Of a stretch of DNA of 64,000 bases, positions 4,842-58,643 are shown one piece after another. The translations under genes and the position numbers were made by a program. Location: positions 325,190-389,189 of the forward strand of contig CAZOMY010000001.1 of NCBI GenBank assembly GCA_964581115.1. Reading direction: 5' to 3'. Positions within the stretch are counted from its first letter, which is position 1. Every line of letters begins with the position of its first letter. This DNA is from an uncultured Ignavibacteriaceae bacterium. GTDB lineage: Bacteria; Bacteroidota; Ignavibacteria; UBA10030. Below the pieces are notes generated by a model that was given only the letters and a program-made list of their open reading frames with translations, was not told where the DNA came from and did no database searches.

Positions 4842-4876
4842 AGCTTCCTCCATGACTGTACTTTTTGTGGCCCGCA

Positions 4877-7740: not shown

Positions 7741-7759
7741 GGGCGATCCTTTCGAATAT

Positions 7760-8230: not shown

Positions 8231-8274
8231 GGAAGATAGCCGAAATTGAGGCCGATTCCAATGAAGCGCGAGAT

Positions 8275-10018: not shown

Positions 10019-10038
10019 GGCGTGCACGCTTCGGAGGA

Positions 10039-13571: not shown

Positions 13572-13587
13572 ACGCAGTGATCCTCTG

Positions 13588-24299: not shown

Positions 24300-27200
24300 A
24301 TGGCAATCGAACTCCTCGATCAGATCCTTGGCCATGTAAGGAATGCGATCCATCGGCAGCGTTATCCCCTGCTCGATTGGCGCATGAAGGAAGGGATCAT
24401 TCCGGGTGCGGAGCGTCCCGACTTCAAGGAAAAGGGATGGACCGATATTCGCGTGCCATTCGAATGGGGACGGTATGACAAGACGGTCTGGTTTCGGAGC
24501 GTATGGACCGTTCCGGAGGGCTCGACCGGCAGGACGGTGGGCGTCCGTCTCTCGTTCCCGGAGGCCCAACTGTACGTGAACGGCGAGCCGTTTCACGGCC
24601 TCGACACGAATCACTGCGAAGTGATCCTTACGGAGAGGGCGAGGCGGAATCAACGTTTTCAGCTTGCGGTTGAAGCCTACAGCGGACGGACCGAACAGCA
24701 CCACCAGTTCTCCGTTGCCGAATGCGTCGAAATTGATACAACGGCGCGCACGCTCTATTACGGGTTGAAGTTGCTGCAGGAGCTGACGAAGACCCTTGAT
24801 CATTCGAGCGAAGAATTCGCCGCTGTCAAGGAACTCATCCGCCGGACGCTGATCTACCTCAAGTACTTCGCCCCTGACGGCGAGGAGTATCCCAACGCCA
24901 TCGGCCGCGCGCTCCAATTCCTTCGCTCGGCCATTGGCACGGAGTTCCGGACGTCTGTTCCGGGACTCATTCATCTCGCGGGCCAGTCGCACATCGACGT
25001 CGTCTGGCTCTGGAAGCTTGCGGAAACGGAACGGAAGAACGGACGAACCTTCTCGACGGTCCTGCGCCTGCTGGAGCAGCACCCCGCCTTCTCGTATTCC
25101 CAGAGCCAGCCATTCCTGTATCATCAGGTAAAGCGGCGAACACCGCGCTTGTTCAACGAGATCAAGACGCACGTCGCTTCCGGTCGGTGGGAAGCGGTCG
25201 GTCCCATGTGGGTGGAACCCGACTGCAACATCCCATCGGGTGAATCGCTCGTGCGTCAGCTGATCCACGGCAGTCGCTTCTACCGACAGGAGTTCGACCG
25301 CTCCTCTGAAGTGCTGTGGCTTCCCGACACTTTCGGGTACAGCTGGGCGCTTCCGCAGATCCTGAAGAAGTCGGGCGTGCCCTACTTCTTTACAACCAAG
25401 TTGCGCTGGAACGATACGACTGTCTTTCCGCACACGTCGTTCTGGTGGCAGGGGATCGACGGATCGCGCGTGCTCGCGCACATTCCGCCGCTCGGACTGG
25501 AAGCGCTTGTGACGCCGAAGGATCTGATCAGGACCGCCAAGGAGTTCGGCGACGATCCCGATCCGCGGCCCGTGATGCAAACCTTCGGCTACGGCGACGG
25601 CGGCGGCGGACCGACCACCGAACAGGTGGAGACGGCGCAGTTCCTGACGTCCATGCCAGGATTGCCGATGGCCCAGATGTCGACTCCCACGACCTTCTTC
25701 AAGGACCTCGAAACGCGGGCCGACGGGCTGCCGGTCTGGGAAAAAGAGTTGTATCTCGAAAAGCACCGAGGCACGTACACGACGCACGCGCGCGTGAAGA
25801 AGCTGCACCGACAAGCCGAGCGCGCGATGTATCTCGCGGAATTGACGGCCGTTTTGCGTTCGACGCTCCCCGGCATTGCGCCGGTGCCGTACCCGACCAA
25901 AGAGCTTGACGCCCTGTGGAAGTCGCTGCTGACGAACCAGTTCCACGACATCGTCCCCGGTACGGCGATCAAGGAGGCCATGGACGAGGCCACCGCCGAT
26001 CTCGAACGCATCACCACGAGCGCTACGGCCATGACGCTCAAGGCGCTTGGCGGTCTGATGGAGAAGCGCTCGGCAAAGGGACCTTCGACCTTCACGGCCT
26101 TCAACCCGCTCGCCTTCCATCGCTCAGCCTACGTCGAAGTTGACGTCGTCGGCTCCGCCCCGCACTGGACCGTCCGGTCGGCCTCGGGCGAGCAGCTTGA
26201 GTCGCAGGTCTTGGAACGCGCAAAGTCGCACGTGCGCCTCCTTGTCCATCTGCCTCACATCGCCCCATTGGGAGCCGTGGCATTTGTCGTCTCGCCGTCG
26301 GAAGAGCCGACGCAACCGACGGTCAACGGTTGGAAGTTCGCCCTGAAGACCGTCGAGACACCGCGATTGCGTTTGCGGTTTGACAACAAAGGTGGCATCA
26401 GCTCGATCTACGACAAGACCGCACGTCGTGAGTTCGTCCAAAAAGGCAAGAGGGCGAATGCCCTCATGACGGCCCGGGACCTTCCGAAAGAATGGGAGGC
26501 CTGGGACCTCGAAGGGGACTTCGACCGGCGACGGACCGACCTCTTCGCCTTCAAAGGGGCGAAGGTCGTCGAACAGGGCCCGCTACGTGCAACGATCCGG
26601 CACGAGTACCGTACCGAGAACGGCTCGGTGATCGCGCAATCGATCCGACTCTATCATCGCTCTCCGAGGATTGAAGTCGAGAATCACGTCAAGTGGAAGG
26701 AGCAGCACACGATGCTGAAAGTGGCCTTCCCCGTCGCCGCGAAGGCCACCTCGGCCACCTACGAGATCCAGTTCGGAGCCGTCGAACGCGCATCACGTTC
26801 GAAAGACCCGGCCGAGAAGGCAAAGTTCGAAGTGCCCGCTCAACAATGGGCCGCCGTCGGCGACGGCAAGACGGGTGTGGCGATCTTGAACGATTCGAAG
26901 TACGGCTACGACTGCCGGGACAATCATTTGCGGTTGACGCTACTTCGGTCTCCCAGATTTCCTCACCCTGTAACGCCTCACAATCAGACCGACACGCACT
27001 GGACGGACATCGGCGAGCATGATTTCACCTACGCCTTCTTCCCCTTTTCCGGAGACTGGCGGTCGGCGGGCATCACGGCCGAGGCCCGAGGGTTGAACGT
27101 CCCGGTCATCGTCCTGCCCGGGACGCCGGCCAGGGCGATCCCCTCGTTCGCGAGCCTCAACAAGCCGACGATCGTGCTTTCGGCCCTGAAGGGGGCCGAA

Positions 27201-27419
27201 GACGGCGACGGCATCGTGATGCGCTTGTACGAATCGACGGGCGTCGCGACCGATGCCACGGTCACATTTGGACGCTCCCCGTCCCAATGCGAAGAGACCG
27301 ACCTGCTCGAGCGTCCCACGAAGGACCTTCCGGTGAAGTCGGGAAAGCTCCCACTGCGATTCAAGCCTTTCGAGATCAAGACGGTTCGAGTACGATTCGC
27401 CGGTCGGAAGAAGAAGTGA
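24300..27419 (+). CDS. Glycoside hydrolase family 38 alpha-mannosidase
   Basis: 1039 aa. The GH38 N-terminal catalytic region has GQSHIDVVWLW and the later WLPDTFGYS. The central and C-terminal beta-sandwich domains are of a length typical for bacterial GH38 enzymes. The ATG was verified. Confidence 0.88.
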   Translation: MAIELLDQILGHVRNAIHRQRYPLLDWRMKEGIIPGAERPDFKEKGWTDIRVPFEWGRYDKTVWFRSVWTVPEGSTGRTVGVRLSFPEAQLYVNGEPFHGLDTNHCEVILTERARRNQRFQLAVEAYSGRTEQHHQFSVAECVEIDTTARTLYYGLKLLQELTKTLDHSSEEFAAVKELIRRTLIYLKYFAPDGEEYPNAIGRALQFLRSAIGTEFRTSVPGLIHLAGQSHIDVVWLWKLAETERKNGRTFSTVLRLLEQHPAFSYSQSQPFLYHQVKRRTPRLFNEIKTHVASGRWEAVGPMWVEPDCNIPSGESLVRQLIHGSRFYRQEFDRSSEVLWLPDTFGYSWALPQILKKSGVPYFFTTKLRWNDTTVFPHTSFWWQGIDGSRVLAHIPPLGLEALVTPKDLIRTAKEFGDDPDPRPVMQTFGYGDGGGGPTTEQVETAQFLTSMPGLPMAQMSTPTTFFKDLETRADGLPVWEKELYLEKHRGTYTTHARVKKLHRQAERAMYLAELTAVLRSTLPGIAPVPYPTKELDALWKSLLTNQFHDIVPGTAIKEAMDEATADLERITTSATAMTLKALGGLMEKRSAKGPSTFTAFNPLAFHRSAYVEVDVVGSAPHWTVRSASGEQLESQVLERAKSHVRLLVHLPHIAPLGAVAFVVSPSEEPTQPTVNGWKFALKTVETPRLRLRFDNKGGISSIYDKTARREFVQKGKRANALMTARDLPKEWEAWDLEGDFDRRRTDLFAFKGAKVVEQGPLRATIRHEYRTENGSVIAQSIRLYHRSPRIEVENHVKWKEQHTMLKVAFPVAAKATSATYEIQFGAVERASRSKDPAEKAKFEVPAQQWAAVGDGKTGVAILNDSKYGYDCRDNHLRLTLLRSPRFPHPVTPHNQTDTHWTDIGEHDFTYAFFPFSGDWRSAGITAEARGLNVPVIVLPGTPARAIPSFASLNKPTIVLSALKGAEDGDGIVMRLYESTGVATDATVTFGRSPSQCEETDLLERPTKDLPVKSGKLPLRFKPFEIKTVRVRFAGRKKK

Positions 27420-28099
27420 CCCCCGCCCCCTTGATCCCCCGCGGCCTTGTGGTCTCCTGCCAGGCCGAAGAGGGAAGTCCGTTCAACGCCCCGGATTTTA
27501 TCGTTGCTTTCGCCCGAGCGGCTGAGTTGGGCGGGGCTGTGGCCGTTCGACTGCGCGACGTCGAGAATGTCGCCGCGGTCCGATCGCGCATCTCCATCCC
27601 GATCATCGCCTTGACGAAGGGTTCGTTCGCCGACGGCAGCGTGCTCATCACTCCCGACGAGAGCGACGTGGCACGGCTTTTCGATGCCGGAGCCGACATG
27701 GTGGCCCTCGACGTGACGGACCGCACCGGCCCGGACGGTCGACACCGACTGGAGACGTTCCGGCGTGTGCGGGCGGATTTCCGCCGGCCCTTGATGGCAG
27801 ACATTGCGACGTACGAGGAAGGGATCAAGGCCGCCGAGGCAGGAGCCGACGTGGTGGGGACCACATTGTCGGGTTACACTCCGTCAACGGCGAAGGCGAG
27901 AAGGGATGTTCCCGACTTCGAGCTGATCGAACGGCTGGCCAAGGCGCTGCCGGGAAAGGTGGTGGCGGAGGGAAGGATCTGGACGCCCGAGCAAGCGGCG
28001 CTGGCGTTTCGTTTGGGTGCGGCGTCCGTCGTGGTGGGAACCGCCATCACGCGGCCCGTGGACATCGTGCGGCGCTTTGTTTCAGCGCTCAACCGCTGA
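27416..28099 (+). CDS. nanE: Putative N-acetylmannosamine-6-phosphate 2-epimerase (NanE family)
   Basis: VVSCQAEEGSPFNAP...VAVRL...IPIIALTK matches the NanE pattern (LIVSCQAL..EPL). The start was chosen at GTG 27416, which overlaps the GH38 TGA (GTGA). No in-frame ATG precedes the conserved N-terminus. Confidence 0.8.
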   Translation: MTPAPLIPRGLVVSCQAEEGSPFNAPDFIVAFARAAELGGAVAVRLRDVENVAAVRSRISIPIIALTKGSFADGSVLITPDESDVARLFDAGADMVALDVTDRTGPDGRHRLETFRRVRADFRRPLMADIATYEEGIKAAEAGADVVGTTLSGYTPSTAKARRDVPDFELIERLAKALPGKVVAEGRIWTPEQAALAFRLGAASVVVGTAITRPVDIVRRFVSALNR

Positions 28100-30142
28100 C
28101 CGGTCGAAGACCATCGCCGCCGCTCCTAAGAGTCCGGCCTCTTCGATCATTGAGAAGACCAGCCGTACCCCCGCGCGCTGGACGCGCATGGTCCGTTCCG
28201 CGAACGCCTTTTGGAGAGCCGCACCGAACGCCTCCCCGCTCTTCAGCACGTTCCCTCCCACGACGACAACCTCCGGATTGAGGGCATTCACAAGCCCGGC
28301 CAGCGCCGTACCGAGCGCCGCTCCCCCCCTTGTGAGGACCTCCAGAGCCGCGCGGTCTCCTTCGCCTGCCAATACTCCAAGCGCCGTCGCCGACGCCTCA
28401 AGACCCGCTTCCCTAGCCATGCGAGCCAGACCGGAACCGGAGGCGTAGAGCTCGACGCATCCCACATTGCCGCAGGAACATCGAGGACCCCGAGCATCGA
28501 CGCTGATGTGGCCGATCTCTCCGGCGGCATTCGACGTGCCGCGTACGAGTCTGCCATTCACGATCAGTCCACCGCCGATCCCCGTGCCGACGTGGACGAC
28601 GATGGCATGCGATGCGGCCCGGAGCAGGCCGAATCGGGTCTCCGCGACCGCCGCACACTTCCCGTCGTGATCGACCCACGCCCGGAGCCCCGTCTCGCGT
28701 GCGAGTAACATCGCCAGCGGTACATCGTGCCATCCCTCCAGGAGCGCGGTCGAGTCCACAACCACACCATTCTCATGGTCCACGCGCCCGCCGGTGCTCA
28801 CCCCCACCCCGCGTGATCGGCGGCTTCCTGCCCGACCTATGGCGTGTCGCACCAATCCAAGCAGCGCCGCAATGATCTCCTCCCTCGAACCCGGCGTCCT
28901 GACCGATTCCCGCTCGAGCACCTCGCCCTGAAGTGTCACAAGCGCCGCGCGGAGTTGAGTGCCGCCGAGGTCGACCGCGATGGCCACGTCGGATTGCAGC
29001 TCCTGAGCGACATTCATAGCTTTGGGCCGGATGGGCGGTTTCAGACGATAGTCGCCCTTGACGAAGTGATAGATGTCCTCGTAGAATTCCCGCTCTTGCG
29101 CATCTTCGTGACGAAACATCTTCTTGAGCGAGCCGACACCGTGGAAGTGGGCGCATGCCGCGTCGAGCATGTATCCATACGTCACGCCTCCGTTGAGATA
29201 ATCGCGGAAGCGTGAGTGGCGTTCTCCGGTGATCGCGATCGGCTCATCCAACTCGAGATAGTACTCCATCTCGATGCCGGCATAGCGTTCCATCGCAGCG
29301 CGCGCCGCTCCCTCGATCGTCTTGCCCGACCGGTAGAACATGTAGTTCGGCTGGAGGAAGGCAAGGTCGAAGTAGTACGAGCGATAGTCGTCCAGCAAGT
29401 GGAGGTTGTACATCGCCCAGAAAGGGATCCAACTAGTGATCAGTCCGTGTTGATGGACGTGTGGTCGGAGCTCCTTCAACAGCCAGTGGTCGTCCACGTC
29501 CCAGCTGCGGTAGACGGACTCGAACATCCAATACACGCCGAGCAGATGGACATGACGGTGGCTTTGGGATCTCCATCGACGCACGATCTCATCGACGAAC
29601 CATCGTACCGCGGTCAGCCGTTGTTGTGTGGCCCTCATCAGGTTCTGGCCGCCGATGCCGAAATCGAGATCCGGTCCGTCCGGCGTCAGTCGACCCCAAG
29701 CACGCTGCGAGATGTGCGGATACGGCAACATGAGGATGACATTGCGCTTGCGGTCGGGGACCGTTCCGATCTCCTTTGCGCATGCTTCGATCGCGCGATC
29801 CAGCGTCTCCACCGCGCCCTCAGGACCCAGGTAGAACTCCAGCAACTCCTCCCAATCGCGCTTTGTGGCCGGACGTGGAGAGACCATGGCGAAGAAGTCC
29901 CCTTCGCCCGACATCGACGTGCCGAGATTCACGTCGGCGCAGAAATCACGCTGTTCGGCCGCCTTGACGTTCAGAAAGAGGAACGAATCGAACAGCCAAT
30001 CGTCCGACCGGCCGCTGGCGTCCTGATGCGCAACGTAGTAGCGCAGATCGTCGACAGTCCAGGGACGCTCGAAGCCTCCGTACATCAGCATCAGATGCCG
30101 GAGGTAATTCGTCGAAGGGTGCGATGGAGGGAAATAGGGCAT
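28082..30142 (-). CDS. Fusion protein: an uncharacterised ~390-aa N-terminal domain plus a C-terminal ROK-family sugar kinase (NanK/glucokinase-like)
   Basis: The C-terminal ~300 aa have the ROK signature (IAVDLGGTQLRAALV, GTGIGGGLIVNGRL, CSCGNVGCVELYASG). The N-terminal domain (MPYFPPS...HLLGVYWMFESVY...GIEMEYYLELD) was not assignable to a named family. The ATG at 30142 was verified. The 3' end overlaps the convergent nanE by 18 bp. Confidence 0.8.
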   Translation of the reverse strand: MPYFPPSHPSTNYLRHLMLMYGGFERPWTVDDLRYYVAHQDASGRSDDWLFDSFLFLNVKAAEQRDFCADVNLGTSMSGEGDFFAMVSPRPATKRDWEELLEFYLGPEGAVETLDRAIEACAKEIGTVPDRKRNVILMLPYPHISQRAWGRLTPDGPDLDFGIGGQNLMRATQQRLTAVRWFVDEIVRRWRSQSHRHVHLLGVYWMFESVYRSWDVDDHWLLKELRPHVHQHGLITSWIPFWAMYNLHLLDDYRSYYFDLAFLQPNYMFYRSGKTIEGAARAAMERYAGIEMEYYLELDEPIAITGERHSRFRDYLNGGVTYGYMLDAACAHFHGVGSLKKMFRHEDAQEREFYEDIYHFVKGDYRLKPPIRPKAMNVAQELQSDVAIAVDLGGTQLRAALVTLQGEVLERESVRTPGSREEIIAALLGLVRHAIGRAGSRRSRGVGVSTGGRVDHENGVVVDSTALLEGWHDVPLAMLLARETGLRAWVDHDGKCAAVAETRFGLLRAASHAIVVHVGTGIGGGLIVNGRLVRGTSNAAGEIGHISVDARGPRCSCGNVGCVELYASGSGLARMAREAGLEASATALGVLAGEGDRAALEVLTRGGAALGTALAGLVNALNPEVVVVGGNVLKSGEAFGAALQKAFAERTMRVQRAGVRLVFSMIEEAGLLGAAAMVFDRSAVER

Positions 30143-30159
30143 GCCATCATTTGAAAAAG

Positions 30160-30265
30160 CGTTTCACAGAGGTCCACAGAGGAACACAGAGATCCACAGA
30201 GAGCATCTCGTTTGAGTACTCGAGCAATGTTCGGTGGATCTCTGTGTGATCTCAGTGTAACGCTT
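30160..30265. repeat. Heptamer-built palindromic intergenic element A
   Basis: Four direct CACAGAG copies at 9-10 bp spacing (CACAGAGgtCCACAGAGgaaCACAGAGatCCACAGAGag) are followed by a 37-bp spacer. The perfect inverted copy GTGGATCTCTGTG (reverse complement of CACAGAGATCCAC) follows. Then come further CACTGAG-like units. Confidence 0.6.
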
Positions 30266-30272
30266 CATGGTG

Positions 30273-32459
30273 TCATTTTGCGGCGATCACGATGACTGCC
30301 GGTTCCGAGCCCGGATGGCCGTCCGACTCCGCCCGCACCAGCGTCAGGATCTGGTCCTTCGTCGCGACGCCGCACAGATCGACGATGCGATTCGAGATCA
30401 AAACGAAAACGTCGGGCGTGAGGCCTCCTGCGTCGCCGTACACCGTCGCCGACTCGACGAGCGCGCCTACGCGCGAACTCAATGACTGCACCGCGGCGGC
30501 CTCGACGATCGCGTTCGACAGCTTCAGCCGGATGACGCCGTCCGTTCCGACCACGCGCACCGGATGCCGCTCCATCGTCACCCAGCCGAACAACCTTGCC
30601 CGGCGGTAGACCCCCCGAAAGACGCGCAAGAATTCCGTCGAGCCGACGGCCTCGACGGGCTCAGCGCCCTGGCCCATCGACAGCCCGGCTATCCTTGCGA
30701 TCTCTTCGTCCGGAAGCCGGCTGCGGGCCAGATCGCGAGTTCGAAGTTCAGGCACACCTGTCGCAACGGCGATTAGGCGCTTCTGCTTGGTATCGACCTC
30801 GACACGGACGTCAATGGAATCGGCCGAGGCGCCCATTGCTGCGACCGACGCCGCCGCGTCAGCACGTATGCGCAGCAGATCCGCCTCGGTCGGTGAGATC
30901 ATGCTGCGTTCGACGGTGTCACGGATCATGCCGAGCGCCGCTCCGATGGCGGAGATCACTTCGGCGTGCGCCGTGATGGTGTACGGAAGTCCGGATTGTC
31001 GGGCCGATTCCGGAACGACGGCCTCCGCCCCTCCACCACCCCCCACCAACGACAGGAGCTCTCGGTCGAGTTCGTATTCGCGGATGAACTGCTCGACGAC
31101 ACGAGAGACCTTGCGAGCCGCCACCGCGAGGACCGTTGCGGCCCACGTCGACGGTTCCTGACGCACGAACGGACGCAGGATCTCGCCAAGCCGCTTCACC
31201 GACTCGGCATGTCCTCTGGCGTATCCGGTCGGCGTTCCGGTCAGGTTGAGGGCGTCGGTGGTCGTCACCGCCAGTGACGGCTTCCGTCCATCCTTCGGTA
31301 CCAGCACCGCGTAGTCGCCCGGATCACCCGGCCGGGGTTGAAGGCTCTGCGGTTCGACATCGGCCAGGTGCTGAGGATCGCTGAAACTCGGATAGTGCAG
31401 ACCCGCGATGTGGGCGCTGCGAGGGCCCACATCAACCACCGCGCCTTGCTTCCAACGAACCATCGACCCTCCGCCGATGCCGACGGTGCGAATGTCCAGC
31501 GTCTTGACAAACAGCCGGTGACCGCCAACCTCCGAGGTGCGGACCATCGGCCGTCCATTCTTGATAATAGAGATGTCGGTACTCGTGCCGCCGACCTCGA
31601 GGAACAGTCCGTCGGAGACCCGGGCGTACATGAGTGCCGCGGCCACGCCCGCTGCCGGTCCGGAGAGCATCGTGAGAATGGGACGCCGGCGCATCTCCTG
31701 AATATCCATGATGCCGCCGTCGCTGCGCATGATCATCAGGGGCGTGGTGATGCCCGCCCGGCGGACCGACTGTTCCGTCATGTTCGCCGCCTCGAGCATC
31801 TTCGGCAACATTGAGGCATTGATCACGGCCGTTCGCGTGCGTGCCCTCAATCCGTAAAGCTGAGAGATGTCCGATGCCGCGGTGACCAGAAGCCCTCTCG
31901 CCTGTAGCGCCTCAGCAGCCGCGTGCTCGCGTGACCGGTCATCCACACCGAACGCCTCGCTTACGACGAAGACCTCAGCACCCTCACCGCGCAATTCTTC
32001 CGCCGCCTGCACGATCGCTTCAGGCCGTACGCCGTCGGTGACATCGCAGTAACGGTGGAGCGTCTCGAGGAATTTGCCGGGGGCCAATTCGATGCGACCC
32101 ACCTTCGTCTGGCGACGTGCCACCCAGCCGTCGCCGCTTCGTCCAAGACCGATGATCCCGACGCGAGCCACGTCTCCTTCCAGAAGCGCGTTCGTCGCCT
32201 GGGTCGTGCTGTGGGCGATCAGCGACACGTCCGACGGCCGGATCTTCGACTTCCGGAGCAATTCCTGCATGACCTCCACCACACCCCGAGCCACCCCCTC
32301 TTTGGCGGCGTGCGTCGTTGGGACGACAGCCGTTCCAAGCAGCTTCAACGTCGATGCCTCGAGCGCGACGGCGTGCGTGAACGTGCCGCCGACGTCGATG
32401 CCGATCTTCACCTGGCGGCGAGTACGCCTTGCTTTCCTGTTGATGGGCCTGGAGGTCAT
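30273..32459 (-). CDS. Hydantoinase/oxoprolinase-family protein (Hydantoinase_A-like ATPase)
   Basis: ~729 aa. The N-terminal ASKHA motif is KIGIDVGGTFTHAV, and a second motif is LFLEVGGTSTDISII. The start was chosen at the verified ATG 32459 (MTSRPINRKARRTRRQVKIGIDVGGT). The ORF-track start at 32495 is a GTG lying inside repeat element B. Confidence 0.85.
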   Translation of the reverse strand: MTSRPINRKARRTRRQVKIGIDVGGTFTHAVALEASTLKLLGTAVVPTTHAAKEGVARGVVEVMQELLRKSKIRPSDVSLIAHSTTQATNALLEGDVARVGIIGLGRSGDGWVARRQTKVGRIELAPGKFLETLHRYCDVTDGVRPEAIVQAAEELRGEGAEVFVVSEAFGVDDRSREHAAAEALQARGLLVTAASDISQLYGLRARTRTAVINASMLPKMLEAANMTEQSVRRAGITTPLMIMRSDGGIMDIQEMRRRPILTMLSGPAAGVAAALMYARVSDGLFLEVGGTSTDISIIKNGRPMVRTSEVGGHRLFVKTLDIRTVGIGGGSMVRWKQGAVVDVGPRSAHIAGLHYPSFSDPQHLADVEPQSLQPRPGDPGDYAVLVPKDGRKPSLAVTTTDALNLTGTPTGYARGHAESVKRLGEILRPFVRQEPSTWAATVLAVAARKVSRVVEQFIREYELDRELLSLVGGGGGAEAVVPESARQSGLPYTITAHAEVISAIGAALGMIRDTVERSMISPTEADLLRIRADAAASVAAMGASADSIDVRVEVDTKQKRLIAVATGVPELRTRDLARSRLPDEEIARIAGLSMGQGAEPVEAVGSTEFLRVFRGVYRRARLFGWVTMERHPVRVVGTDGVIRLKLSNAIVEAAAVQSLSSRVGALVESATVYGDAGGLTPDVFVLISNRIVDLCGVATKDQILTLVRAESDGHPGSEPAVIVIAAK

Positions 32460-32469
32460 TGGAGGAGAA

Positions 32470-32560
32470 TTTGCCACAAAGAGCACAAAGGGCACAAAGA
32501 AGTGGGAATTAGGCGATAGTTCAACTTATGGCCTTTTGTGCTCTCTGTGTTCCTTGTGGC
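32470..32560. repeat. Heptamer-built palindromic intergenic element B (related to element A)
   Basis: CCACAAAGagCACAAAGggCACAAAGaagtgg is followed by a 28-bp spacer. Then comes GCCTTTTGTGCTCTCTGTGTTCCTTGTGGC, which is the reverse complement of GCCACAAGGaaCACAGAGagCACAAAAGGC. These are the same CACARAG heptamers at helical-turn spacing, arranged as an imperfect long palindrome. Confidence 0.6.
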
Positions 32561-32575
32561 CAAGCTTGTCTTGTG

Positions 32576-34063
32576 TCAGTAGAACAGCGCTCCGGCGATC
32601 GACAGCCCCAGCAATGCCGCCACCCAGGCATACGGCAGCGTGCGCCACATGATCTCGTTCACGTCGATGCGGACCTCGTTCGCCACCCAGACGTTCTGCG
32701 TATTGGTCGGGTCGCTGATACCCTGGATGAGGCCGAGCGACATGAGGATCCCCATCACCGCTCCGGCAGGAACTCCCGTCGCCAGCAGGATGCCACCGAC
32801 GCCATAGCCCAATCCCCAGACGTTCAGCGGACCGCGGTAAAGCGCCAAAGGTCCGAGGAGGGTGAAGAGCAGCACATAGCTCCAGCCGGACGACGGCACG
32901 ATCAACGAGAGCAACGGCTTCATGTCGGTCATGACCGGCCATTCAACGATCGCTCGGGCCGCCGCGTCGACATACCATGCACGACCGGGGCCTGTCGTGG
33001 TCGGCCCGAGGATGGCGCTCAACAGCATACCGATCCCGACCATCAACACCACAGCCGGTATGACGCTCGAGCTTCCTTCGATCATCGCGCGCGTCACCAT
33101 GTTGAGCGTGCCCCGCCGCAAGGTCACGATGATGCCGTAGACGAACGCCGCTATGAACGCCGCAATGAACGGAACGTCGAACATGAGGATCAAGATCAGC
33201 GGAACGAGCGGCGTAGCATACGCCCAAGCCGTGACCGATGAGACTGGACCGGAGGCACGGGTCCGGAATGCGCGTACGATCGACGACAATATCGCGTATC
33301 CCAACAGCGCGAGGATCGTCCATCGGAGCGGTGTCATGAGCCACGCTGTACCAATGTCGTTGAACGTCCATGCCAGCGCTGCCATGGCGACGCCGGTTCC
33401 GATCAGGCCCAGCACAGACGTACGGATCGTCCGAAATCGAACAGACCCACTCCGGAGCAACTCGAGGGTCAGAAATCCCACGGCAACGACCGCCGTTGTT
33501 CCGAAGAGGGCCATGGCATAAGACGACACCGCAGCGTCATCTAACCGCAGCACCGACCGATAGACCGCCCAGTTGTTCGCGTTCAGAAGTCCGCCAAGAC
33601 TGATGCCGACCAGCAGGACCCCGGCCGCCACGTGCTCACGTACGCCTAGCGACAGCAGGATCGGCAGGATCACCGCTCCGACCATGATCACTGCCCCGAG
33701 GCCGCCGATCGTAGTGAAGAGCAGCGTGACGATCGACAACATCACCAGCGCAACAAGCAACGGATTGTCGCCGGCAAACTCGGCCCCGCGCCGCACGATC
33801 TGTTCGGCCACGCCGGATCGCTGCAACAATTGGCTGACCATCCCGCCGAAGAAGGAGATGACCATCGGTTCGGTCAGTCGGAGGGCGCCGTCCGCGAGGA
33901 TGCCGGCGCTGACATCGGTCCACCCGAGGTGCCCGCTGGCGACCTGGACCAGCCCGATGCCAAAGGCCATCAGCGGAAGCGCCAGAACCGCCGGAAGCTT
34001 CCGGAGGAACATGAGCGTCGCGGCGGCGACAAAGATCAGCAAAATGAGGAAGGCGTTGAGCAT
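32576..34063 (-). CDS. Polytopic membrane permease (family unassigned; TctA/DctM/GntP-like size and topology)
   Basis: 495 aa, almost entirely hydrophobic, with ~12-14 TM segments and Gly-rich re-entrant-like stretches. The ATG at 34063 was verified. A family-level assignment was not possible by eye. Confidence 0.6.
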   Translation of the reverse strand: MLNAFLILLIFVAAATLMFLRKLPAVLALPLMAFGIGLVQVASGHLGWTDVSAGILADGALRLTEPMVISFFGGMVSQLLQRSGVAEQIVRRGAEFAGDNPLLVALVMLSIVTLLFTTIGGLGAVIMVGAVILPILLSLGVREHVAAGVLLVGISLGGLLNANNWAVYRSVLRLDDAAVSSYAMALFGTTAVVAVGFLTLELLRSGSVRFRTIRTSVLGLIGTGVAMAALAWTFNDIGTAWLMTPLRWTILALLGYAILSSIVRAFRTRASGPVSSVTAWAYATPLVPLILILMFDVPFIAAFIAAFVYGIIVTLRRGTLNMVTRAMIEGSSSVIPAVVLMVGIGMLLSAILGPTTTGPGRAWYVDAAARAIVEWPVMTDMKPLLSLIVPSSGWSYVLLFTLLGPLALYRGPLNVWGLGYGVGGILLATGVPAGAVMGILMSLGLIQGISDPTNTQNVWVANEVRIDVNEIMWRTLPYAWVAALLGLSIAGALFY

Positions 34064-34068
34064 GAACG

Positions 34069-35460
34069 TCAGAGGCGGGCGCCGCGCTTGATGAGTTCGG
34101 CGCGCAATCGAATGCCGTCAACCTTTCGGAAGGCCACGCCGTCCCTGATCGACATGGCCGAAGCCACCGCAGCCGCTTCGCCCATCGCCCGGCAATTCGA
34201 TTGCACCCGTATCGAGCTCTGCGCCTCGAACGAAGCCGAGAGACATCGTCCGGCCACTAGCAGTCCGTCTATGCCTACCGGAACAAGGCATCGATAGGGA
34301 ACCTCATGGTATTCTCCAGGAGGGAGCTTCGTCACGCCGTTGCGGGGGTCGTTCGGATCTCGATGGACGTCGAGCGGATAGTTGTTGCGAAGAACGCCGT
34401 CGGGGAACTTGGCGCCGGCGAGGACCTCTTCGGTCGTCAGGTAGTATTCCCCCCGGATCCGCCTCGATTCGCGCACCCCGACCATGGGCGCCGACAGGAC
34501 GAGATACGATCGTTCACATCCGGGGAGATACCGGCGGCAGAAGGAGACGTAGCGTTGAATGATCTCGCGACCTTTGATCTGGGCTTGAGTGAGATGATCG
34601 GGGTTCGTGCCGTCTACGTTCTCGCGGATCCGCGGGCAGTTAAAGGCCAGTTCGCCCGGCCGTCCGGCCATGCTGAACACCTGGAAGTAGTCCCCGTCGC
34701 GCTCAAGCAGGACACCCTCTTCCACCGCTTTGCGGAAGACCGGCTCGAGCGTCCAACCCTTTCCCCAGACCATCGCGGTGTGGATGAGCATCACATCGGT
34801 GCCTTCGGCATTCTCTATCACTTCATGCCGGCCGAGTGAGCGAAGGTATTGTGCGAACCGGGCCAGGTCGACGTTGCCAAGATGGAACCGCACTGAAAAC
34901 GGCTGGTTGCGTCCGGTCTCGGGGTCCCCCTGTTCAACCATGACCCCGGCCCGCGAAGCAACGTCCCCGTCGCCGGATGCATCGATCGTTCGTCGCGCCC
35001 TGATGAATCCCCTTCCGGCCTTGTTCAGTATGACAGAGCCGACGACAGATCCATCGTCCACGACCACGTCCTCAAACATTGTGTAGTACAGGATACGGGC
35101 CCCCATTTCGACGACCATTTGTTCGAGGGTGTACTTGAGCATCTCAGGGTTGAACCATCCTCGATTCCCGTCCTTCCAGACGCCCGACTCGCGCGCCGCG
35201 TTCATGCGCCGGTTGATCTCGAAGTCGATGCCGCCGTTGAGCGGCTCGCCATCGATCTGGTTGGGCATCATGGGGGTTACGAGCGCCCCCGTCTGTGTGC
35301 CGCCGAGGAAGCCCAGCTGTTCGACCACGAGTGTACGAAGGCCTTCGCGGCCGCCGGCGATCGCCGCGACCGCACCGGCCGTGCCGCCTCCGACGATCAG
35401 CAGGTCGACGTCCGCGACCGTCGGGATCGACTGCTCTTGGACTGAGCGCAACGAAAGCAT
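34069..35460 (-). CDS. FAD-dependent oxidoreductase (PF12831-like, GIDA-type fold)
   Basis: The N-terminal dinucleotide-binding motif is DLLIVGGGTAGAVAAIAGGREG, followed by a long FAD_oxidored-like body. The start was chosen at ATG 35460. Position 35463 is a TTG codon. Confidence 0.75.
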   Translation of the reverse strand: MLSLRSVQEQSIPTVADVDLLIVGGGTAGAVAAIAGGREGLRTLVVEQLGFLGGTQTGALVTPMMPNQIDGEPLNGGIDFEINRRMNAARESGVWKDGNRGWFNPEMLKYTLEQMVVEMGARILYYTMFEDVVVDDGSVVGSVILNKAGRGFIRARRTIDASGDGDVASRAGVMVEQGDPETGRNQPFSVRFHLGNVDLARFAQYLRSLGRHEVIENAEGTDVMLIHTAMVWGKGWTLEPVFRKAVEEGVLLERDGDYFQVFSMAGRPGELAFNCPRIRENVDGTNPDHLTQAQIKGREIIQRYVSFCRRYLPGCERSYLVLSAPMVGVRESRRIRGEYYLTTEEVLAGAKFPDGVLRNNYPLDVHRDPNDPRNGVTKLPPGEYHEVPYRCLVPVGIDGLLVAGRCLSASFEAQSSIRVQSNCRAMGEAAAVASAMSIRDGVAFRKVDGIRLRAELIKRGARL

Positions 35461-35540
35461 CAAACGATCCGTGGAGTGTGCGACGAGGTGAGACCATTGA
35501 ACGACCCGACAAGGTCGCCAAGGAACAGCCCAACATCAAC

Positions 35541-36260
35541 TCACAGCCGCGCGTGGAAGCCCATCCGGACGTCGAGCATCTGCAGGCCGCTGACGTTCTC
35601 CATGTCGAGCGCAAGCGCGGGCCAGAGCTCGCCGATGATCATCGTGTATCGCGCGCCAAGCGAGAACCAGAGGGGTTCAAACACCCGCACGCGCACGTCG
35701 GCGCCGAGGTCGAATCCGCCGCTCCATTCTTGCTGTCGGTTCTCCGGAACGTTCAGGATCGCCAGAGTCACGGGAGTTCCCAGCGAATCGGCAACGAGCG
35801 TCCCCCGAAAGGCGCCACGCAGGCTCGTCCAACGGTAGAAGCCGAATCCGAAGGCGCCATCGGCTTCGACGAACTCGCCGGCGAACAGTGGGAATGTCCC
35901 TGTCGCAAGCAGTCCGACCGCCTGTACCGAGACCTCAAGCCCGGTGAGCGGCAGGCCGAAGACCTGTTCGACCCCGGCGATCTCCTTCTTCCTCTTCAGC
36001 GCCAGGGCCTCGCGGTTCTCCTCCGTGAACGAGAGCCACTCCAGACGAGCCCCCCAACGAGGCTTGTCATCAGTGGCAGGCTGGACCAGAAGCGCACCCG
36101 ACCATCCGGGCTTGACACGATCGGATAAGCCACCAAGCGGAATGGCGATGCCGCCTTCGATGCCAACCACGGACGGCGACAAGATGATCTGGGCCCGTCC
36201 GTCAGGAGACGCCAGAGCGAGCCACAAGAGCGTGGCGAGGGACCTCAAGAAAGTCTTCAA
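35541..36260 (-). CDS. Small outer-membrane beta-barrel protein (hypothetical)
   Basis: It has a signal peptide (MKTFLRSLATLLWLALASPDGRAQ) and alternating amphipathic beta-strand patterning. The start is TTG and overlaps the upstream TGA (TTGA). It is the last gene of the co-directional operon. Confidence 0.5.
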   Translation of the reverse strand: MKTFLRSLATLLWLALASPDGRAQIILSPSVVGIEGGIAIPLGGLSDRVKPGWSGALLVQPATDDKPRWGARLEWLSFTEENREALALKRKKEIAGVEQVFGLPLTGLEVSVQAVGLLATGTFPLFAGEFVEADGAFGFGFYRWTSLRGAFRGTLVADSLGTPVTLAILNVPENRQQEWSGGFDLGADVRVRVFEPLWFSLGARYTMIIGELWPALALDMENVSGLQMLDVRMGFHARL

Positions 36261-36991
36261 TACAGAAACTCCAGTGCGATGCGGCCGGTGACAGAGCGGT
36301 CGAACGGCATCTCGTCAAAACCCATGGAGCCCTCGGTCGGAATGATCTGGACCAAGCGCCCCCCCGCTCGTATGCGCAACAACTCCGAGACCCTTACCGA
36401 TACGTCGAGCGATGCCATGGCGAAAAGAGGATTGCCCGCCTTTGGGTTCGAGAACTGTTCGAAGGTGTAGCCAAAGGTGTGGTCGACGGAAGCGAAGTAG
36501 CGCGTCCACGTCTCCTGCAGGTACAGTTTTCGCACAAAGAAAATCATGCCGCCTCCGATGGACGGCGTGACCGACACGCCCTCATCAGCGAACACCGGAT
36601 AGTGCAGTGCTACGGTGATCGGAAAGGCCTGCATACGCTGGATGGGCACGAGCGAGGCCGTGACGATCGAGGAATCCGGCCCGCGAACGATCGATTGTAC
36701 AAGACCGGCGTAGCGATCGTTCCAGAACGTCCAGTTCCATTTCTCCAGGGCACTGTCCTGATCGACCTCGTAGCGCTCATAGCCGAGACCGACCGAGATC
36801 GACAGATCACCAACCAGGCCGATGCGCACATCAACGCCGGCGCTCAGCCCGAAAGCATCGCGCACACGGATCCGCTCCGCGATCGAACGTGCATACCCGC
36901 CCGTGAACTGGACCGATTCCACCTGCGCGGCCGCGGTCATGACCATCAGGGCTGTCAGTGCCGCGCACGACGCCGAACGAAGGCTCTTCAT
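36257..36991 (-). CDS. Small outer-membrane beta-barrel protein (hypothetical)
   Basis: It has a signal peptide (MKSLRSASCAALTALMVMTAAAQ), beta-strand periodicity and a C-terminal aromatic residue (…ALEFLY). The verified ATG overlaps the upstream stop (ATGA). Confidence 0.55.
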   Translation of the reverse strand: MKSLRSASCAALTALMVMTAAAQVESVQFTGGYARSIAERIRVRDAFGLSAGVDVRIGLVGDLSISVGLGYERYEVDQDSALEKWNWTFWNDRYAGLVQSIVRGPDSSIVTASLVPIQRMQAFPITVALHYPVFADEGVSVTPSIGGGMIFFVRKLYLQETWTRYFASVDHTFGYTFEQFSNPKAGNPLFAMASLDVSVRVSELLRIRAGGRLVQIIPTEGSMGFDEMPFDRSVTGRIALEFLY

Positions 36992-37920
36992 AGCGACACC
37001 TGTACGGACATGCGCATCACATTCCCCAGCCGGCCGAACAGCACGTAGGCAAAGTCGAGCTCTACCGGCAGGCCGATGTTCGAACGAAGTCCCACGCCGA
37101 AGCTGTGGTCCTCTTCGTCATAGCCGAACTTATGTCCATAACGCAGCATGATCGATTCCTGCCACGCCACTTCGACCCCGCCGTGGATCCGCTCGTCGTT
37201 GTCGCTCGGGTGGAGCGCCTCCGCCATGATCGTCAGGCGCAACGGTTCGCCCGAACCGCCTATCGCCTCCATCGCAGCGCCCATCCGGAGCGTCGACGGC
37301 ATTCGGAATTCGTCGTTCACGAATTTCGCGTTCGTCCCGAAGTTCTGGATGACGGCTGCCAACCGCAGCGTCTGGAAACCGGTGTGGTAGATCATACCGC
37401 CGTCGAGCAGCAGATTGCTGGCGGCATACACGTCAACCCGCTCTTCGACGTATTTCAACGTTGCGCCGAACGCGAACTTGTCCGTCAGTCGTCTGCCGTA
37501 GGAGACGCCCAACGCCATCGACCGGGCACTGAAGGTTCCGGCCGCCGTAAACTCGCGTGTACCCACCTGACGGACCGTGCGCTCCATCGACCCGTGGTCC
37601 ATGACGTTGGCCGACACGCCGACCAGGCCGAGATCGAGCGGAATGGCAAACGCGACGCCGTAATGGGCGATGTCGGCGATCCAGGGGGCGTACGACAGTC
37701 CGACCGCCTGTGTCTCCATTGCGAATGCCGGACCAGCCGGATTCGAGAAGAGCCCTAAAGGGCCGCCATCGGCCCCGGCGAGGCCCGTTTCGCCCAACGC
37801 TGCATCGCGCGCCGACATCGGGACCTGAAGGAACGTGAATCCGGATGTGCCGGTGCGCTTGAAGGTCTGAGCGGACAGCGAAGCGCTGAGCGCAACGAGG
37901 AGAACGAATGCCCGCTTCAT
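36988..37920 (-). CDS. Putative T9SS-associated outer-membrane beta-barrel protein (PorP/SprF-like or PorV/PorQ-like)
   Basis: 310 aa with a signal peptide (MKRAFVLLVALSASLSAQ). The N-terminal region SARDAALGETGLAGADGGPLGLFSNPAGPAF resembles the conserved ..ARs.alGg...A.aDd.sa...NPAgLA stretch of the PorV/PorQ/PorP families. It is translationally coupled (ATGA) directly downstream of a CTD-bearing cargo gene. This is the typical context of PorP/SprF partners. Confidence 0.5.
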   Translation of the reverse strand: MKRAFVLLVALSASLSAQTFKRTGTSGFTFLQVPMSARDAALGETGLAGADGGPLGLFSNPAGPAFAMETQAVGLSYAPWIADIAHYGVAFAIPLDLGLVGVSANVMDHGSMERTVRQVGTREFTAAGTFSARSMALGVSYGRRLTDKFAFGATLKYVEERVDVYAASNLLLDGGMIYHTGFQTLRLAAVIQNFGTNAKFVNDEFRMPSTLRMGAAMEAIGGSGEPLRLTIMAEALHPSDNDERIHGGVEVAWQESIMLRYGHKFGYDEEDHSFGVGLRSNIGLPVELDFAYVLFGRLGNVMRMSVQVSL

Positions 37921-40007
37921 CGGATGATCGCCAGTTTGCCGATCTTCGTGCCCAACGGAGATTCGACGTGATAGATGTAGATGCCGCTCTCAACGAACTG
38001 GCCGAAATCGGTCAGCTGGTCCCATGCAACAATGCCACCGAAGCCATCGGGCACTGTCAGCGTCTTGACAAGGTCTCCTCGGACGGTGTAGATACGGATC
38101 GCGGCAGGATTGGGGATGTTGACGAACTGGATCTCGTCACCCTGCGTCGGCTGGGAGAAGCCTTCGCCGATCACGTACGGGTTGGGGACGACGAGAATGC
38201 CGTCGAGCGATGCCGACGCCGGCAATGTCATTTTGAATGGCGCCGTGGTCCGGTTCGCGAAGATCGACGATTCCAGCGGAGGCACGCGATTGCTGCCGGT
38301 CTCCGGGAAGATGGCCGACGGATTCACCGGCCAGGAGGCTTTGCCCGTGTCGTAGGCCGTCACGGCATAGTAATAGCCGGTCCCGACGTCTCCCGTCGAA
38401 TCGATAAAGGCATAGCGTCCCGTCGTCCCCGTGTAGAATTGCGGATCGCCGCGGGCGACCGTTCCGATCGGTTCCCAGGGACCGATCGGGAGGTACGAAG
38501 AGCGATAGATTCGGTAGCCGGCGAGGTCGAACGTGCCGTCATCGGGGTCGGCCAGTGATTCGGTCTCCGTCCCCCACGAGATCGACGTGGCAGCAAACCC
38601 GGGCCGGTCGCGAAGATACTCGAGCGTGAATGAAGGCGCGGCCGGTGGATCCGGATGGTTCAGCCCGGGCCGGCTGGCGAGCCGCGATTGATCGTACGTG
38701 AACTGCGCTTTGCGGGCCGTCGTCTGGAAGATCGTCGAACCGGCTCCGATGCTCGCCTTCGAGGCTGACGGGTTGACGACGACGCTGTAGTCGACGCCGT
38801 CCACGACCTCGGCTAGAGCGATGACGACCGAGTCACCCGGCGCGAGATTCCACGGGCCGATCGACATCAGCGACCAGACGCGTGTCCTCCGCATTTGCAG
38901 GGTGTCGGAGGACGAAGCGATCGGATTCGTGGCGTTCGCCGGATCACGGAGGACGTCATACCTTGACTCGAACGTCGCCTTGCCAGTAAACGGGCCTCCC
39001 TGATCGATCGACGGACTGCCCCCCGACCACGCGATCTTGTTGACGCGCGAGGTCTGTCCGAACTTGTTCGGACTGGCATAAAGCAATTTGACACCCACAT
39101 GCCCGGGAGCAAGCCATTCGCCGGTCGGGTCGCCGTTCGCGCTGATGGGCCCCTGGGTGCGCGACCGCATGTACTCTTCATCCTCTGGCGTATCAAGATA
39201 ATCGCCCGAGCGGGCCCACATCATGTTGTAGGTCGGGTGGTTCGGGTTTGTGCTCAGGGGACCGAAATGGTACGTGCCACGGGCCCCGGAGGGCAGCGTC
39301 GGAAAGAGGACGGTCCATGCCCGGGAATTGACATGCAAGCCATAGACGGCCAGGGCGTAAAAGTCAAAGAGCGTGTCCTGCACGGCACGCGCCGTGTCGA
39401 GCAGGCGTATCTCAGCAGAGATGTTCTTGAAGCTGTATTCGTGAATGATGTAGTTCTCGTCGCGTTTTGACCCGCTCCATTGATGCGACAGCCGGCTCAC
39501 GCGCAACGGCAGCTGGCGCTCCCGGTCATCGACACGGTTGTAGTTGAGGTTGTACTCCCACGAGGTCTCGATGACCTCCTCCCCCGTCCGTCCCGACGTT
39601 TTCAGGTGGTGGTTCGCTCCCCCCGGATACAGGTGACGGTGCTTCGTCACGATGTACTTTGCACTCGCTTCGTTCGCGATGCTGCTGGCATAGATCGCCC
39701 AGTCCTCGACCGCGAAGACCGAGTCGGCGTCCTTCTTGGCACCGACGTAGAAACCGCCGGTCACGAGATGCGACGGCGGACCACCGATGTCGCGAGCGAT
39801 CCAGGTGTCGTCAAACCCGGGCCAGTCCAAGCCGATGCCCCGGCGTCCCCAGTTGCTGTAGACCGGGCCAACCTTGCCGGCCTGGAGACTGTGCCAAAGC
39901 ATCCCCCGGCGAAAGCTCAGAATGGGAGACTCCACCTGCGCGACGGCATCGGACATCGCAGACGCGGCCAGCAGACCCAAGATCAGATGACGGAGGTTCG
40001 TTTGCAT
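37917..40007 (-). CDS. Secreted protein with a variant T9SS C-terminal sorting domain (type-B-like or divergent type-A), encoded in the SusD position after a TonB-dependent transporter
   Basis: 696 aa. The SPI-type signal peptide is LILGLLAASAMSDAVAQ, with no lipobox cysteine. The C-terminal ~90 aa are VVPNPYV...IRIYTVRGDLVKTL...WDQLTDFGQFVESGIYIYHVE...GTKIGKLAIIR. This matches the T9SS CTD architecture (PN.F/Y, IY..RG.LV, WDG...G..V.SG.Y.Y, G.K.G.L.IIR). The ATG overlaps the TBDT stop. Confidence 0.65.
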   Translation of the reverse strand: MQTNLRHLILGLLAASAMSDAVAQVESPILSFRRGMLWHSLQAGKVGPVYSNWGRRGIGLDWPGFDDTWIARDIGGPPSHLVTGGFYVGAKKDADSVFAVEDWAIYASSIANEASAKYIVTKHRHLYPGGANHHLKTSGRTGEEVIETSWEYNLNYNRVDDRERQLPLRVSRLSHQWSGSKRDENYIIHEYSFKNISAEIRLLDTARAVQDTLFDFYALAVYGLHVNSRAWTVLFPTLPSGARGTYHFGPLSTNPNHPTYNMMWARSGDYLDTPEDEEYMRSRTQGPISANGDPTGEWLAPGHVGVKLLYASPNKFGQTSRVNKIAWSGGSPSIDQGGPFTGKATFESRYDVLRDPANATNPIASSSDTLQMRRTRVWSLMSIGPWNLAPGDSVVIALAEVVDGVDYSVVVNPSASKASIGAGSTIFQTTARKAQFTYDQSRLASRPGLNHPDPPAAPSFTLEYLRDRPGFAATSISWGTETESLADPDDGTFDLAGYRIYRSSYLPIGPWEPIGTVARGDPQFYTGTTGRYAFIDSTGDVGTGYYYAVTAYDTGKASWPVNPSAIFPETGSNRVPPLESSIFANRTTAPFKMTLPASASLDGILVVPNPYVIGEGFSQPTQGDEIQFVNIPNPAAIRIYTVRGDLVKTLTVPDGFGGIVAWDQLTDFGQFVESGIYIYHVESPLGTKIGKLAIIR

Positions 40008-58631: not shown

Positions 58632-58643
58632 GACCGTCGCTCC

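Follow-up and report, generated by a model that had tools for sequence, protein, structure and literature searches.

Tn7, Mu, and the plant CACTA/En-Spm transposons all end in direct repeats of a short transposase-binding unit, with one end in the opposite orientation to the other and the spacers between units unconserved, and I-Ssp6803I is a free-standing homing endonuclease of the PD-(D/E)XK type. Hairpins built of repetitive extragenic palindromes (REPs), known as REPINs, depend on a REP-associated tyrosine transposase (RAYT) gene that is itself flanked by REPs, and it was this flanking that first linked RAYTs to REPs (PMC3116915, PMC3337134). Genes for 23S rRNA intervening-sequence (IVS) proteins, which are four-helix bundles, have been found wedged between cas genes (PMC3936711), and the GxxExxY family is listed as being of unknown function, horizontally transferred many times, and present in multiple copies (PMC3424549). 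Here we describe two inverted-repeat elements, A and B, that bracket a hydantoinase-family gene in an uncultured Ignavibacteriaceae bacterium, within a window of 64,000 nucleotides (contig CAZOMY010000001.1, positions 325,190 to 389,189), and show that both belong to a family of heptamer arrays dispersed across phyla. With moderate confidence, we interpret them as non-autonomous, gene-less copies, comparable to REPINs or miniature inverted-repeat transposable elements (MITEs), of a cassette that carries a GxxExxY gene, in which the heptamers would act as protein-recognition units.

In both elements an array of directly repeated heptamers is followed by a short loop and then by an inverted array:

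30157..30266, no strand assigned: element A, whole inverted-repeat element (inverted repeat I11; fold z -6.0/-7.1; covariance-model match)
30165..30201, plus strand: element A forward array, CACAGAG repeated four times with a period of 10 (pattern matches)
30202..30233, no strand assigned: element A loop or spacer, 32 nt, no open reading frame
30234..30257, plus strand: element A inverted array, GTGGAT-CTCTGTG-tgat-CTCAGTG (sequence; inverted repeat I11)
32469..32564, no strand assigned: element B, whole inverted-repeat element (covariance-model match; inverted repeat I10; fold z -6.0/-4.7)
32473..32499, plus strand: element B forward array, GC followed by three CACAAAG units at period 9 (pattern matches)
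32500..32533, no strand assigned: element B loop, 34 nt, no open reading frame
32534..32560, plus strand: element B inverted array, TTTTGTG ct CTCTGTG tt CCTTGTG GC (sequence; inverted repeat I10)

The CACAGAG units of element A start at 30165, 30175, 30185, and 30195, and CACAGAGATCCAC (30185-30197) forms an exact 13-bp inverted pair with GTGGATCTCTGTG at 30234-30246, beyond which CTCAGTG lies at 30251-30257; read on the mRNA (minus) strand, this inverted array is CACTGAG..CACAGAG..atccac. Complementary outer flanks, AAGCGTTT and AACGCTT, carry the palindrome out to about 30157-30266. This AAGCGTT/AACGCTT flank is longer than the 5-nt tip seen elsewhere in the family, and the element ends ttaCAC...GTGaaa, as do the period-10 loci L322, L323, and L326. 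In element B, the CACAAAG units start at 32475, 32484, and 32493, the inverted units TTTTGTG, CTCTGTG, and CCTTGTG span 32534-32558, and the tips are GC/GGC, which on the mRNA strand read TTGGC...GCAAA. The initial annotation of this DNA had reported palindromic CACAGAG/CACAAAG arrays on both sides of the hydantoinase gene, a perfect 13-bp inverted pair in element A, a co-directional string of minus-strand genes around the elements, and no such arrays elsewhere in the window. The sequence bears out the arrays and the gene string, the inverted pair is exact, and both a pattern search and a covariance model agree that the arrays occur nowhere else in the window. An otherwise identical metagenome contig, L001, has CTTTATG (9960-9970) where a unit of element B in the window reads CTTTGTG (32493-32499), and this difference in the arm is a population-level polymorphism.

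Patterns of two heptamers matched the window 3 and 4 times, against 0.09 and 0.04 expected from dinucleotide shuffles, and no further heptamer arrays were found outside A and B within the 64 kb. The two gaps that hold the elements fold at -51.7 and -42.2 kcal/mol on the mRNA strand, about 6 standard deviations better than shuffled sequences (z ~ -6), and for both gaps the strong folding relative to shuffles holds on either strand. A covariance model trained on 17 hairpins, all from other, unrelated genomes, recognized element B at 32469-32564 (55 bits, E 2e-12, both strands) and element A at 30159-30263 (28.3 bits, E 3.4e-5), and gave nothing with an E value below 0.5 in the rest of the window. 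A permissive search of 29800-32900 against Rfam families returned chance-level matches alone, with E values of 3 or more, and scans for promoter and terminator consensus sequences gave no site at either element. An intrinsic terminator was considered and rejected: no U-tract directly follows the stem, where aaacgc and gcaaat are found instead.

Arrays of the same design recur far beyond this genome. The unit class is C[AG]C[AGT][AG]AG, with the consensus CACAGAG and the variants CACAAAG, CACGGAG, CACGAAG, CGCAGAG, and CGCGGAG, and arrays, defined by three or more units at a period of 8-10(11) bp, hold mostly three but also four of them. The family plan consists of a 5-bp tip, an array, a loop of 13-330 nt, an inverted array, and a complementary tip; tips vary among TTCAC, TTAAC, TTAGC, and TGAAC and pair as TTCAC/GTGAA, TTAGC/GCTAA, or TTTGC/GCAAA. 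Intervals between units have period 9 in 592 cases, period 8 in 86, and period 10 in 56, the last mainly in low-GC, Bacteroidota-like loci. The same architecture was found in at least 9 phyla, with hairpin members in Acidobacteriota, Bacteroidota, Chloroflexota, Planctomycetota, beta- and gamma-Proteobacteria, and delta-proteobacterial lineages, and further members in Kiritimatiellae, Gemmatimonadota, Binatia, and one archaeal metagenome-assembled genome.

A search with a three-heptamer pattern gave at least 120 genome loci and at least 120 viral-contig loci, but two control heptamers of the same composition, at period 9, also gave at least 120 matches each. Raw counts, and the roughly 9 matches expected by chance, therefore prove nothing, and we relied instead on tests of inverted partners, covariance-model matches, and association with GxxExxY genes. 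An inverted partner lay within 400 nt of 56 of 139 genome arrays and 19 of 151 viral arrays, where the control heptamers gave 1 of 129 and 0 of 136, and partnered arrays were ordered forward-then-inverted in 152 cases versus 11 with the opposite polarity. Most matches in viral contigs, like those of the controls, sit in long open frames. Arbitrary heptamers at period 9 are in fact very common in viral and giant-virus contigs (L337-L575), almost always within long open frames, where they presumably encode three-residue peptide repeats, and for this reason naive chance estimates for such patterns are badly wrong.

Copy number and placement differ among genomes. A single hairpin query matched at least 39 places on each of two megaplasmids of Gemmatirosa kalamazoonensis, and the covariance model found 6 copies in one 50-kb stretch of Gemmatirosa and none in another; the source genome of the window shows 2 copies in 64 kb. 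Among 54 family junctions, 35 were co-directional, 16 convergent, and 3 divergent, a placement typical of extragenic repeats that are tolerated, and the median distance from a stop codon to the first heptamer was about 18 nt. In one contig classified as viral (L178, IMGVR_UViG_3300005936_000040, 400-13800), heptamer-array hairpins with the common loop aaaagatttataaattagaaa and the flanks gtctct/agagaaaatcttttaaa occupy almost all of the gene junctions; one array is broken up by a small GC-rich palindrome of its own kind, and the gaps also hold other short-period arrays (cgcagcaggaacggcgaagg; aataac/cagtatc units). In another viral contig (L157, 9556-13341), partnerless CACAGAG arrays lie on the sense strand directly ahead of the ribosome-binding site or ATG of successive genes, and one array pair surrounds a 151-aa open reading frame with no family match. 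No small open reading frame or other gene recurred beside the arrays among the 120 genome loci, and open reading frames within long loops had no family match. Literature searches with sequence strings, GxxExxY, PDDEXK_3, IVS proteins, and REPIN/RAYT turned up no account of such arrays, although a report elsewhere is possible; the single trace was a Bacteroides fragilis primer containing CTCTGTGTTCTCTGTGGTG, upstream of BF2782. The initial annotation had also allowed for a widespread, already-catalogued REP family, and while the arrays are indeed widespread, we did not find them catalogued in Rfam or the literature.

The gene that does accompany the arrays is GxxExxY. Two members of the family drew attention to it, with an intact (L086) or degenerate (L094) GxxExxY reading frame between the arms. 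The protein, of about 125 aa, matches TIGR04256 (7e-45) and Pfam PDDEXK_3 (1.8e-43), and its alignment has invariant D, E, and K residues arranged as in the PD-(D/E)XK motif. A metagenome scan with a three-sequence GxxExxY alignment yielded 571 relatives, from which 80 loci were kept, 79 of them distinct. A forward array lay within 130 nt upstream of the gene in 57 of these 79 loci (72%) and an inverted array downstream in 51 (65%); 43 had both and 71 had one or both. The corresponding counts for control windows from these loci were 10/790 and 6/790 (~1%), which puts the association about 50-fold above background. Bacteroides finegoldii illustrates the arrangement, with radA followed by ttcac-CACAGAG ga CGCAGAG ga CACGGAG, the GxxExxY gene, an inverted array (CTCTGTG ac CTCTGTG tc CTCTGTG-gtgaa), and an FAD gene, and Bernardetia and Gemmatirosa have a similar array-GxxExxY-array order. 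In Sphingomonas, the gene is placed between fabD and fabG, and in 84% of determinable cases it lies on the strand of its neighbors. Period-10, four-unit arrays resembling element A surround GxxExxY genes in L322, L323, and L326.

In 1.9 Mb of loci retrieved by pattern, we found only 2 intact GxxExxY genes and 1 remnant (L094), so gene-less hairpins are the majority form, and since no GxxExxY-like frame was found in the window, L001, L124, or L126, the window copies are of this gene-less form. A single-protein scan of viral contigs gave no GxxExxY, and no sequence relative was found among solved structures. At the junction between radA and the FAD-dependent gene in Bacteroides, two sets of loci (L255-L257 versus L263, L264, L267, and L271) differ in array spacing and have GxxExxY proteins 57% identical, compared with roughly 80-85% (by eye) for the flanking genes, which points to a fixed site where the cassette has been replaced or has evolved very fast. 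Elsewhere, in Prevotella nigrescens (L250), Fusobacteria (L252), and Treponema (L253), GxxExxY genes stand beside long direct repeats or CACGGAT/CACAGAT-type units, and the association of this gene with flanking repeats may be broader than the CACAGAG class.

Three loci syntenic with the window, L125, L124, and L126, were reached through hydantoinase homologs. Their protein identities to the window are 91%, 87%, and 62%, and their identities to it at four-fold degenerate sites are 0.64, 0.49, and 0.36, respectively. The most distant of these, L126, has the gene order of the window with no arrays and no covariance-model match; there, the hydantoinase start lies within a 4-nt overlap with the gene upstream, and the downstream gene begins 14 nt past the stop. 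Because the same gene order exists without the elements, it is the elements and not the hydantoinase gene that were inserted, and the idea that the gene itself might be an insertion delimited by the elements is refuted. A and B are thus shown to be lineage-specific insertions into an older operon. Both L124 and L125 have elements at the two junctions, matched by the covariance model at the same places, and the L125 counterpart of element A scores 31.6 bits. Element A is 83% identical to L125, where the loop is ~72% identical, and the arms are ~80-96% identical to those of L124. Such arms, better kept than four-fold sites, must be either constrained or repeatedly homogenized.

The loops of element B in the window, L124, and L125 cannot be aligned with one another, and in L125 every unit of both arms has changed, CACAAAG to CGCAAAG and CTTTGTG to CTTTGCG, which could reflect replacement by another family member or a concerted change. 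In L124, the loop of element A (12140-12503) is larger by ~250 nt; the added stretch contains nested repeats, more CGCAAAG units, and palindromes rich in GC, which gives the impression that another small element inserted there.

The insertions take up the gaps on either side of the hydantoinase gene, which is listed here with its two neighbors:

30273..32459, minus strand: hydantoinase/oxoprolinase-family gene, 728 aa, outside the elements (Pfam Hydantoinase_A 1.8e-56, Hydant_A_N 3.6e-26)
28082..30142, minus strand: downstream DUF4855-ROK fusion gene (Pfam)
32576..34063, minus strand: upstream 495-aa gene with no family match (family search)

Element A occupies the 130-nt gap from the hydantoinase stop (30273) to the DUF4855-ROK ATG (30142), which is 22 nt beyond the last heptamer, and element B occupies the 116-nt gap from the stop of the 495-aa gene (32576), 17 nt ahead of the element, to the hydantoinase ATG (32459). 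Across the two elements, 15-17 nt separate stop from stem and 15-22 nt separate stem from start. In the public gene call, the start of DUF4855-ROK is placed 51 nt further downstream than the ATG at 30142 (window 30091-30142; L001 12188-12369); the L126 ortholog begins MPYF, like the longer form, so the longer start is probably right and the true gap 130 nt. The surrounding genes (24285-40007) include a SusC-like TonB receptor, a PorV-like protein, an FAD oxidoreductase, NanE, a GH38 mannosidase, an SSF transporter, and an amidohydrolase, and from these annotations they look like a glycan or amino-sugar utilization locus of a bacterium resembling the Fibrobacterota-Chlorobiota-Bacteroidota (FCB) group. 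At 59662-59726, between the convergent genes 57189-59246 (plus strand) and 59735-63157 (minus strand), the window also contains an apparently perfect heptanucleotide tandem repeat, (ATCTTAC) x 9.3 (Tandem Repeats Finder score 116), which resembles the period-7 repeats of the short tandemly repeated repetitive (STRR) type in cyanobacteria and is unrelated to the CACAGAG arrays. Assignment of A and B themselves to the STRR type was rejected, as those heptanucleotide repeats are contiguous at period 7 and A and B have periods of 10 and 9 with variable spacers.

To separate conservation of the motif from conservation of pairing, we used 68 non-redundant elements with three units in each period-9 arm. 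Their two-base spacers are complementary at 36.8%, compared with 36.0 +/- 2.7% when spacers are exchanged between elements, and in the 17-member alignment the heptamer positions pair almost always and the spacer positions in about half of the members. The outer 5-nt tips, in contrast, covary: their complementarity is 75.6%, which 0 of 2000 shuffles attained, versus 58.3% expected. In cassettes with a known sense strand, G-U-type mismatches number 48 versus 55 of the A-C type (10 versus 7 within heptamers only), and no strand polarization of G-U versus A-C was found when orientation was ignored. In L136 (12011-12089) and L227 (7697-7775), three CACGAAG units in the forward array face three CTCTGTG units in the inverted one, and the arms are unmatched unit for unit. 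Spacers that are not complementary, together with a polarity bias that pairing alone would not lead one to expect, identify the hairpin as a by-product of two inverted, recognized arrays, on the principle of terminal inverted repeats that hold several binding units: arm complementarity is carried by the motif, and pairing itself does not appear to be under selection.

How would such copies arise and persist? We propose that an inverted-repeat cassette colonizes short gaps between co-directional genes and that its full-length form would be the one with the ~125-aa GxxExxY (PDDEXK_3) gene between the arrays. The heptamers would be recognized by a DNA-binding protein, for which the GxxExxY nuclease, provided in trans, is the most plausible candidate, and this protein would maintain or spread the elements, in the way that REPINs depend on a RAYT. 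The copies in the window may persist because their position, precisely from one stop codon to the following start, does little harm. The ~100-nt mRNA hairpin would be a consequence of the inverted arrays and not a selected trait, though it may still touch processing or translational coupling; more speculatively, arms pairing in the mRNA would draw the stop upstream and the start downstream close to each other, which might account for tolerance where ancestral genes overlapped. Mobile repeats of the REP or MITE kind had been among the options raised by the initial annotation, and membership of a dispersed cross-phylum family, with absence from the syntenic L126, makes this the best supported of them. 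A larger claim, which we offer tentatively as possible and no stronger, is that GxxExxY proteins act in trans as the enzymes of a minimal mobile system not described before. It would comprise the ~125-aa PD-(D/E)XK nuclease gene within inverted arrays of CACAGAG-type heptamers and a far larger population of gene-less hairpins that it maintains, and these would spread horizontally over at least nine phyla and settle precisely at operon junctions.

Several observations weigh against interpreting A and B as gene-less GxxExxY copies. Neither movement nor a target-site duplication has been seen; A, B, and the Gemmatirosa copies show no direct repeats at their ends, and the empty site in L126 is too diverged for exact boundaries. 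The arms of A and B are kept above the neutral rate, a pattern not expected of a decaying selfish insert unless homogenization continues or selection acts at the level of the host. The role given to GxxExxY comes from association, with no GxxExxY gene in the window. In addition, about half of the pattern matches have no partner array and lie inside long open frames, and the raw "family" therefore includes some unrelated coding repeats.

The preservation of the arms is one reason to ask whether the hairpins serve the host as RNA, by directing RNase III or other processing, by stabilizing 3' ends and so allowing differential expression in the operon, or as stems that preserve translational coupling by drawing a stop codon and the following start close. 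Both elements lie within a co-directional gene string and fold strongly (z ~ -6), stop-to-stem and stem-to-start distances are short, as is the family median of ~18 nt from stop to heptamer, divergent gaps that would contain promoters are depleted of elements (3/54), the arms and 3' flank of element A have been kept among relatives better than neutral sites, and both arms of element B in L125 changed in step in all units. Nevertheless, we consider this account rather unlikely. The sense strand shows no excess of G-U over A-C mismatches, spacer dinucleotides within the stem are no more complementary than those of unrelated elements, the arms of L136 and L227 carry different heptamer variants, and the opposite polarity, which would fold equally well, is found in 11 cases versus 152. 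There is also no Rfam match and no terminator-like tail. The mRNA processing or stability hairpins put forward when the elements were first noticed thus gain no positive support, with neither a G-U excess nor compensatory change in the spacers.

The direction of dependence could also be reversed: the arrays might be generic landing sites spread by other means, with GxxExxY genes as passengers resembling homing endonucleases that enter hairpin loops and do not mobilize the gene-less copies. This would suit the great excess of hairpins over GxxExxY genes, the loci in Gemmatirosa, L269, and L260 where the gene lies between two complete hairpins and not inside one, the signs of cassette replacement among the 57%-identical variants at the Bacteroides radA junction, and the other kinds of flanking repeat around some GxxExxY genes (Prevotella, Fusobacteria). 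We think it quite unlikely, as no other gene recurs beside the arrays, and the gene-less hairpins and the arrays flanking GxxExxY have the same polarity, as expected if one derives from the other. An older idea, that the arrays are binding sites of a dimeric regulator on one face of the DNA, keeps one part of its appeal, in that the units are spaced at about a helical turn in inverted arrays and the heptamers alone are conserved, not the spacers. As operators of a transcription factor for the hydantoinase gene or the sugar-utilization operon, however, they are very improbable: the orthologous L126 operon has no arrays, the elements sit between a stop and the next start rather than at a promoter, no promoter-like site was found, and the arrays are shared by unrelated junctions of viral contigs and of at least 9 phyla and surround GxxExxY genes. 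The same arrays at hundreds of unrelated junctions, and around those genes, cannot be the sites of a regulator specific to one operon. Scarcely credible at all is an origin as chance low-complexity sequence or products of local slippage, for which one could cite the abundance of arbitrary period-9 heptamer arrays in public contigs (at least 120 for each of two controls) and a copy number that varies between orthologs in a way suggestive of slippage. Inverted partners are specific to the CACAGAG-type motif, a model built from unrelated genomes recognizes both A and B, and the GxxExxY association exceeds control windows ~50-fold, which together refute this alternative.

For the operon, the finding is ordinary: the palindromes give no grounds for regarding the hydantoinase gene as mobile or under special regulation, and they are best annotated as repeat insertions. 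As a lead on GxxExxY, it is of moderate to high interest. GxxExxY/PDDEXK_3, an uncharacterized nuclease-fold family in very many genomes, is now tied to a defined DNA motif that offers a testable substrate, and the arrays constitute a REP-like class of repeats defined by one 7-bp unit common to several phyla. If the mobile-system interpretation is true, it would amount to a partnership like that of REPINs and RAYTs built on a different enzyme fold. Since carriers exist in culture (Gemmatirosa kalamazoonensis, Bacteroides finegoldii, and probably B. fragilis), experiments on binding, cleavage, and mobility are feasible. A practical consequence is that the arrays may mislead gene callers, through HR/TE-rich N-terminal extensions, as well as programs that find repeats or CRISPRs.

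Among described systems, REPs and REPINs with their RAYTs in Pseudomonas and Enterobacteria share several features with the family of A and B: short extragenic inverted repeats present, as in Gemmatirosa, in many copies per genome, mostly without a gene, placed after genes in co-directional or convergent gaps, and a candidate enzyme gene flanked by the repeats. The arms differ in being arrays of 7-bp units at a period of 9-10 bp, whereas a REP is a single palindrome of 20-40 bp, and the GTAG or CGTC tag at the end of a REP (PMC3733652) is absent from A, B, and the 17-member alignment, which end in TTNAC-CACAGAG. RAYTs are Y1 HUH transposases, in contrast to the PD-(D/E)XK fold of the GxxExxY protein (PDDEXK_3/TIGR04256) encoded between the arrays here, and they are single-copy and vertically inherited, unlike the multi-copy, horizontally spread GxxExxY genes (PMC3424549). 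Known REP families also have no unit in common across phyla, while the CACAGAG-type unit recurs from one phylum to another.

Like MITEs, the elements have terminal inverted repeats around a short non-coding core, outnumber the gene-bearing form, and vary in presence between relatives. They differ in having ends built of sub-repeats and no known DDE transposase parent, and no target-site duplication is seen as far as the diverged empty site in L126 allows it to be judged; the parent of a MITE is an insertion sequence encoding a transposase, and the sole gene-bearing relatives here carry GxxExxY and no known transposase. The open reading frames of IVS proteins are likewise small genes placed between host genes or in a stem, co-directional and within inverted repeats, but they belong to another protein family, and A and B have no open reading frame and lie outside rRNA. 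With free-standing homing endonucleases of the I-Ssp6803I type, the GxxExxY loci have in common a small PD-(D/E)XK protein encoded within its presumed target and signs of cassette replacement at a fixed site; the arrays, known here from sequence, have no intron or intein context, and gene-less copies are numerous, which would be unexpected for classical homing. Tn7, Mu, and CACTA elements are kilobases long and use DDE/RNase H-type transposases, compared with gene-less copies of ~100 bp and an associated gene of ~125 aa in this family, but the design is alike: the units are conserved, the spacers are not, and the two ends are inverted.

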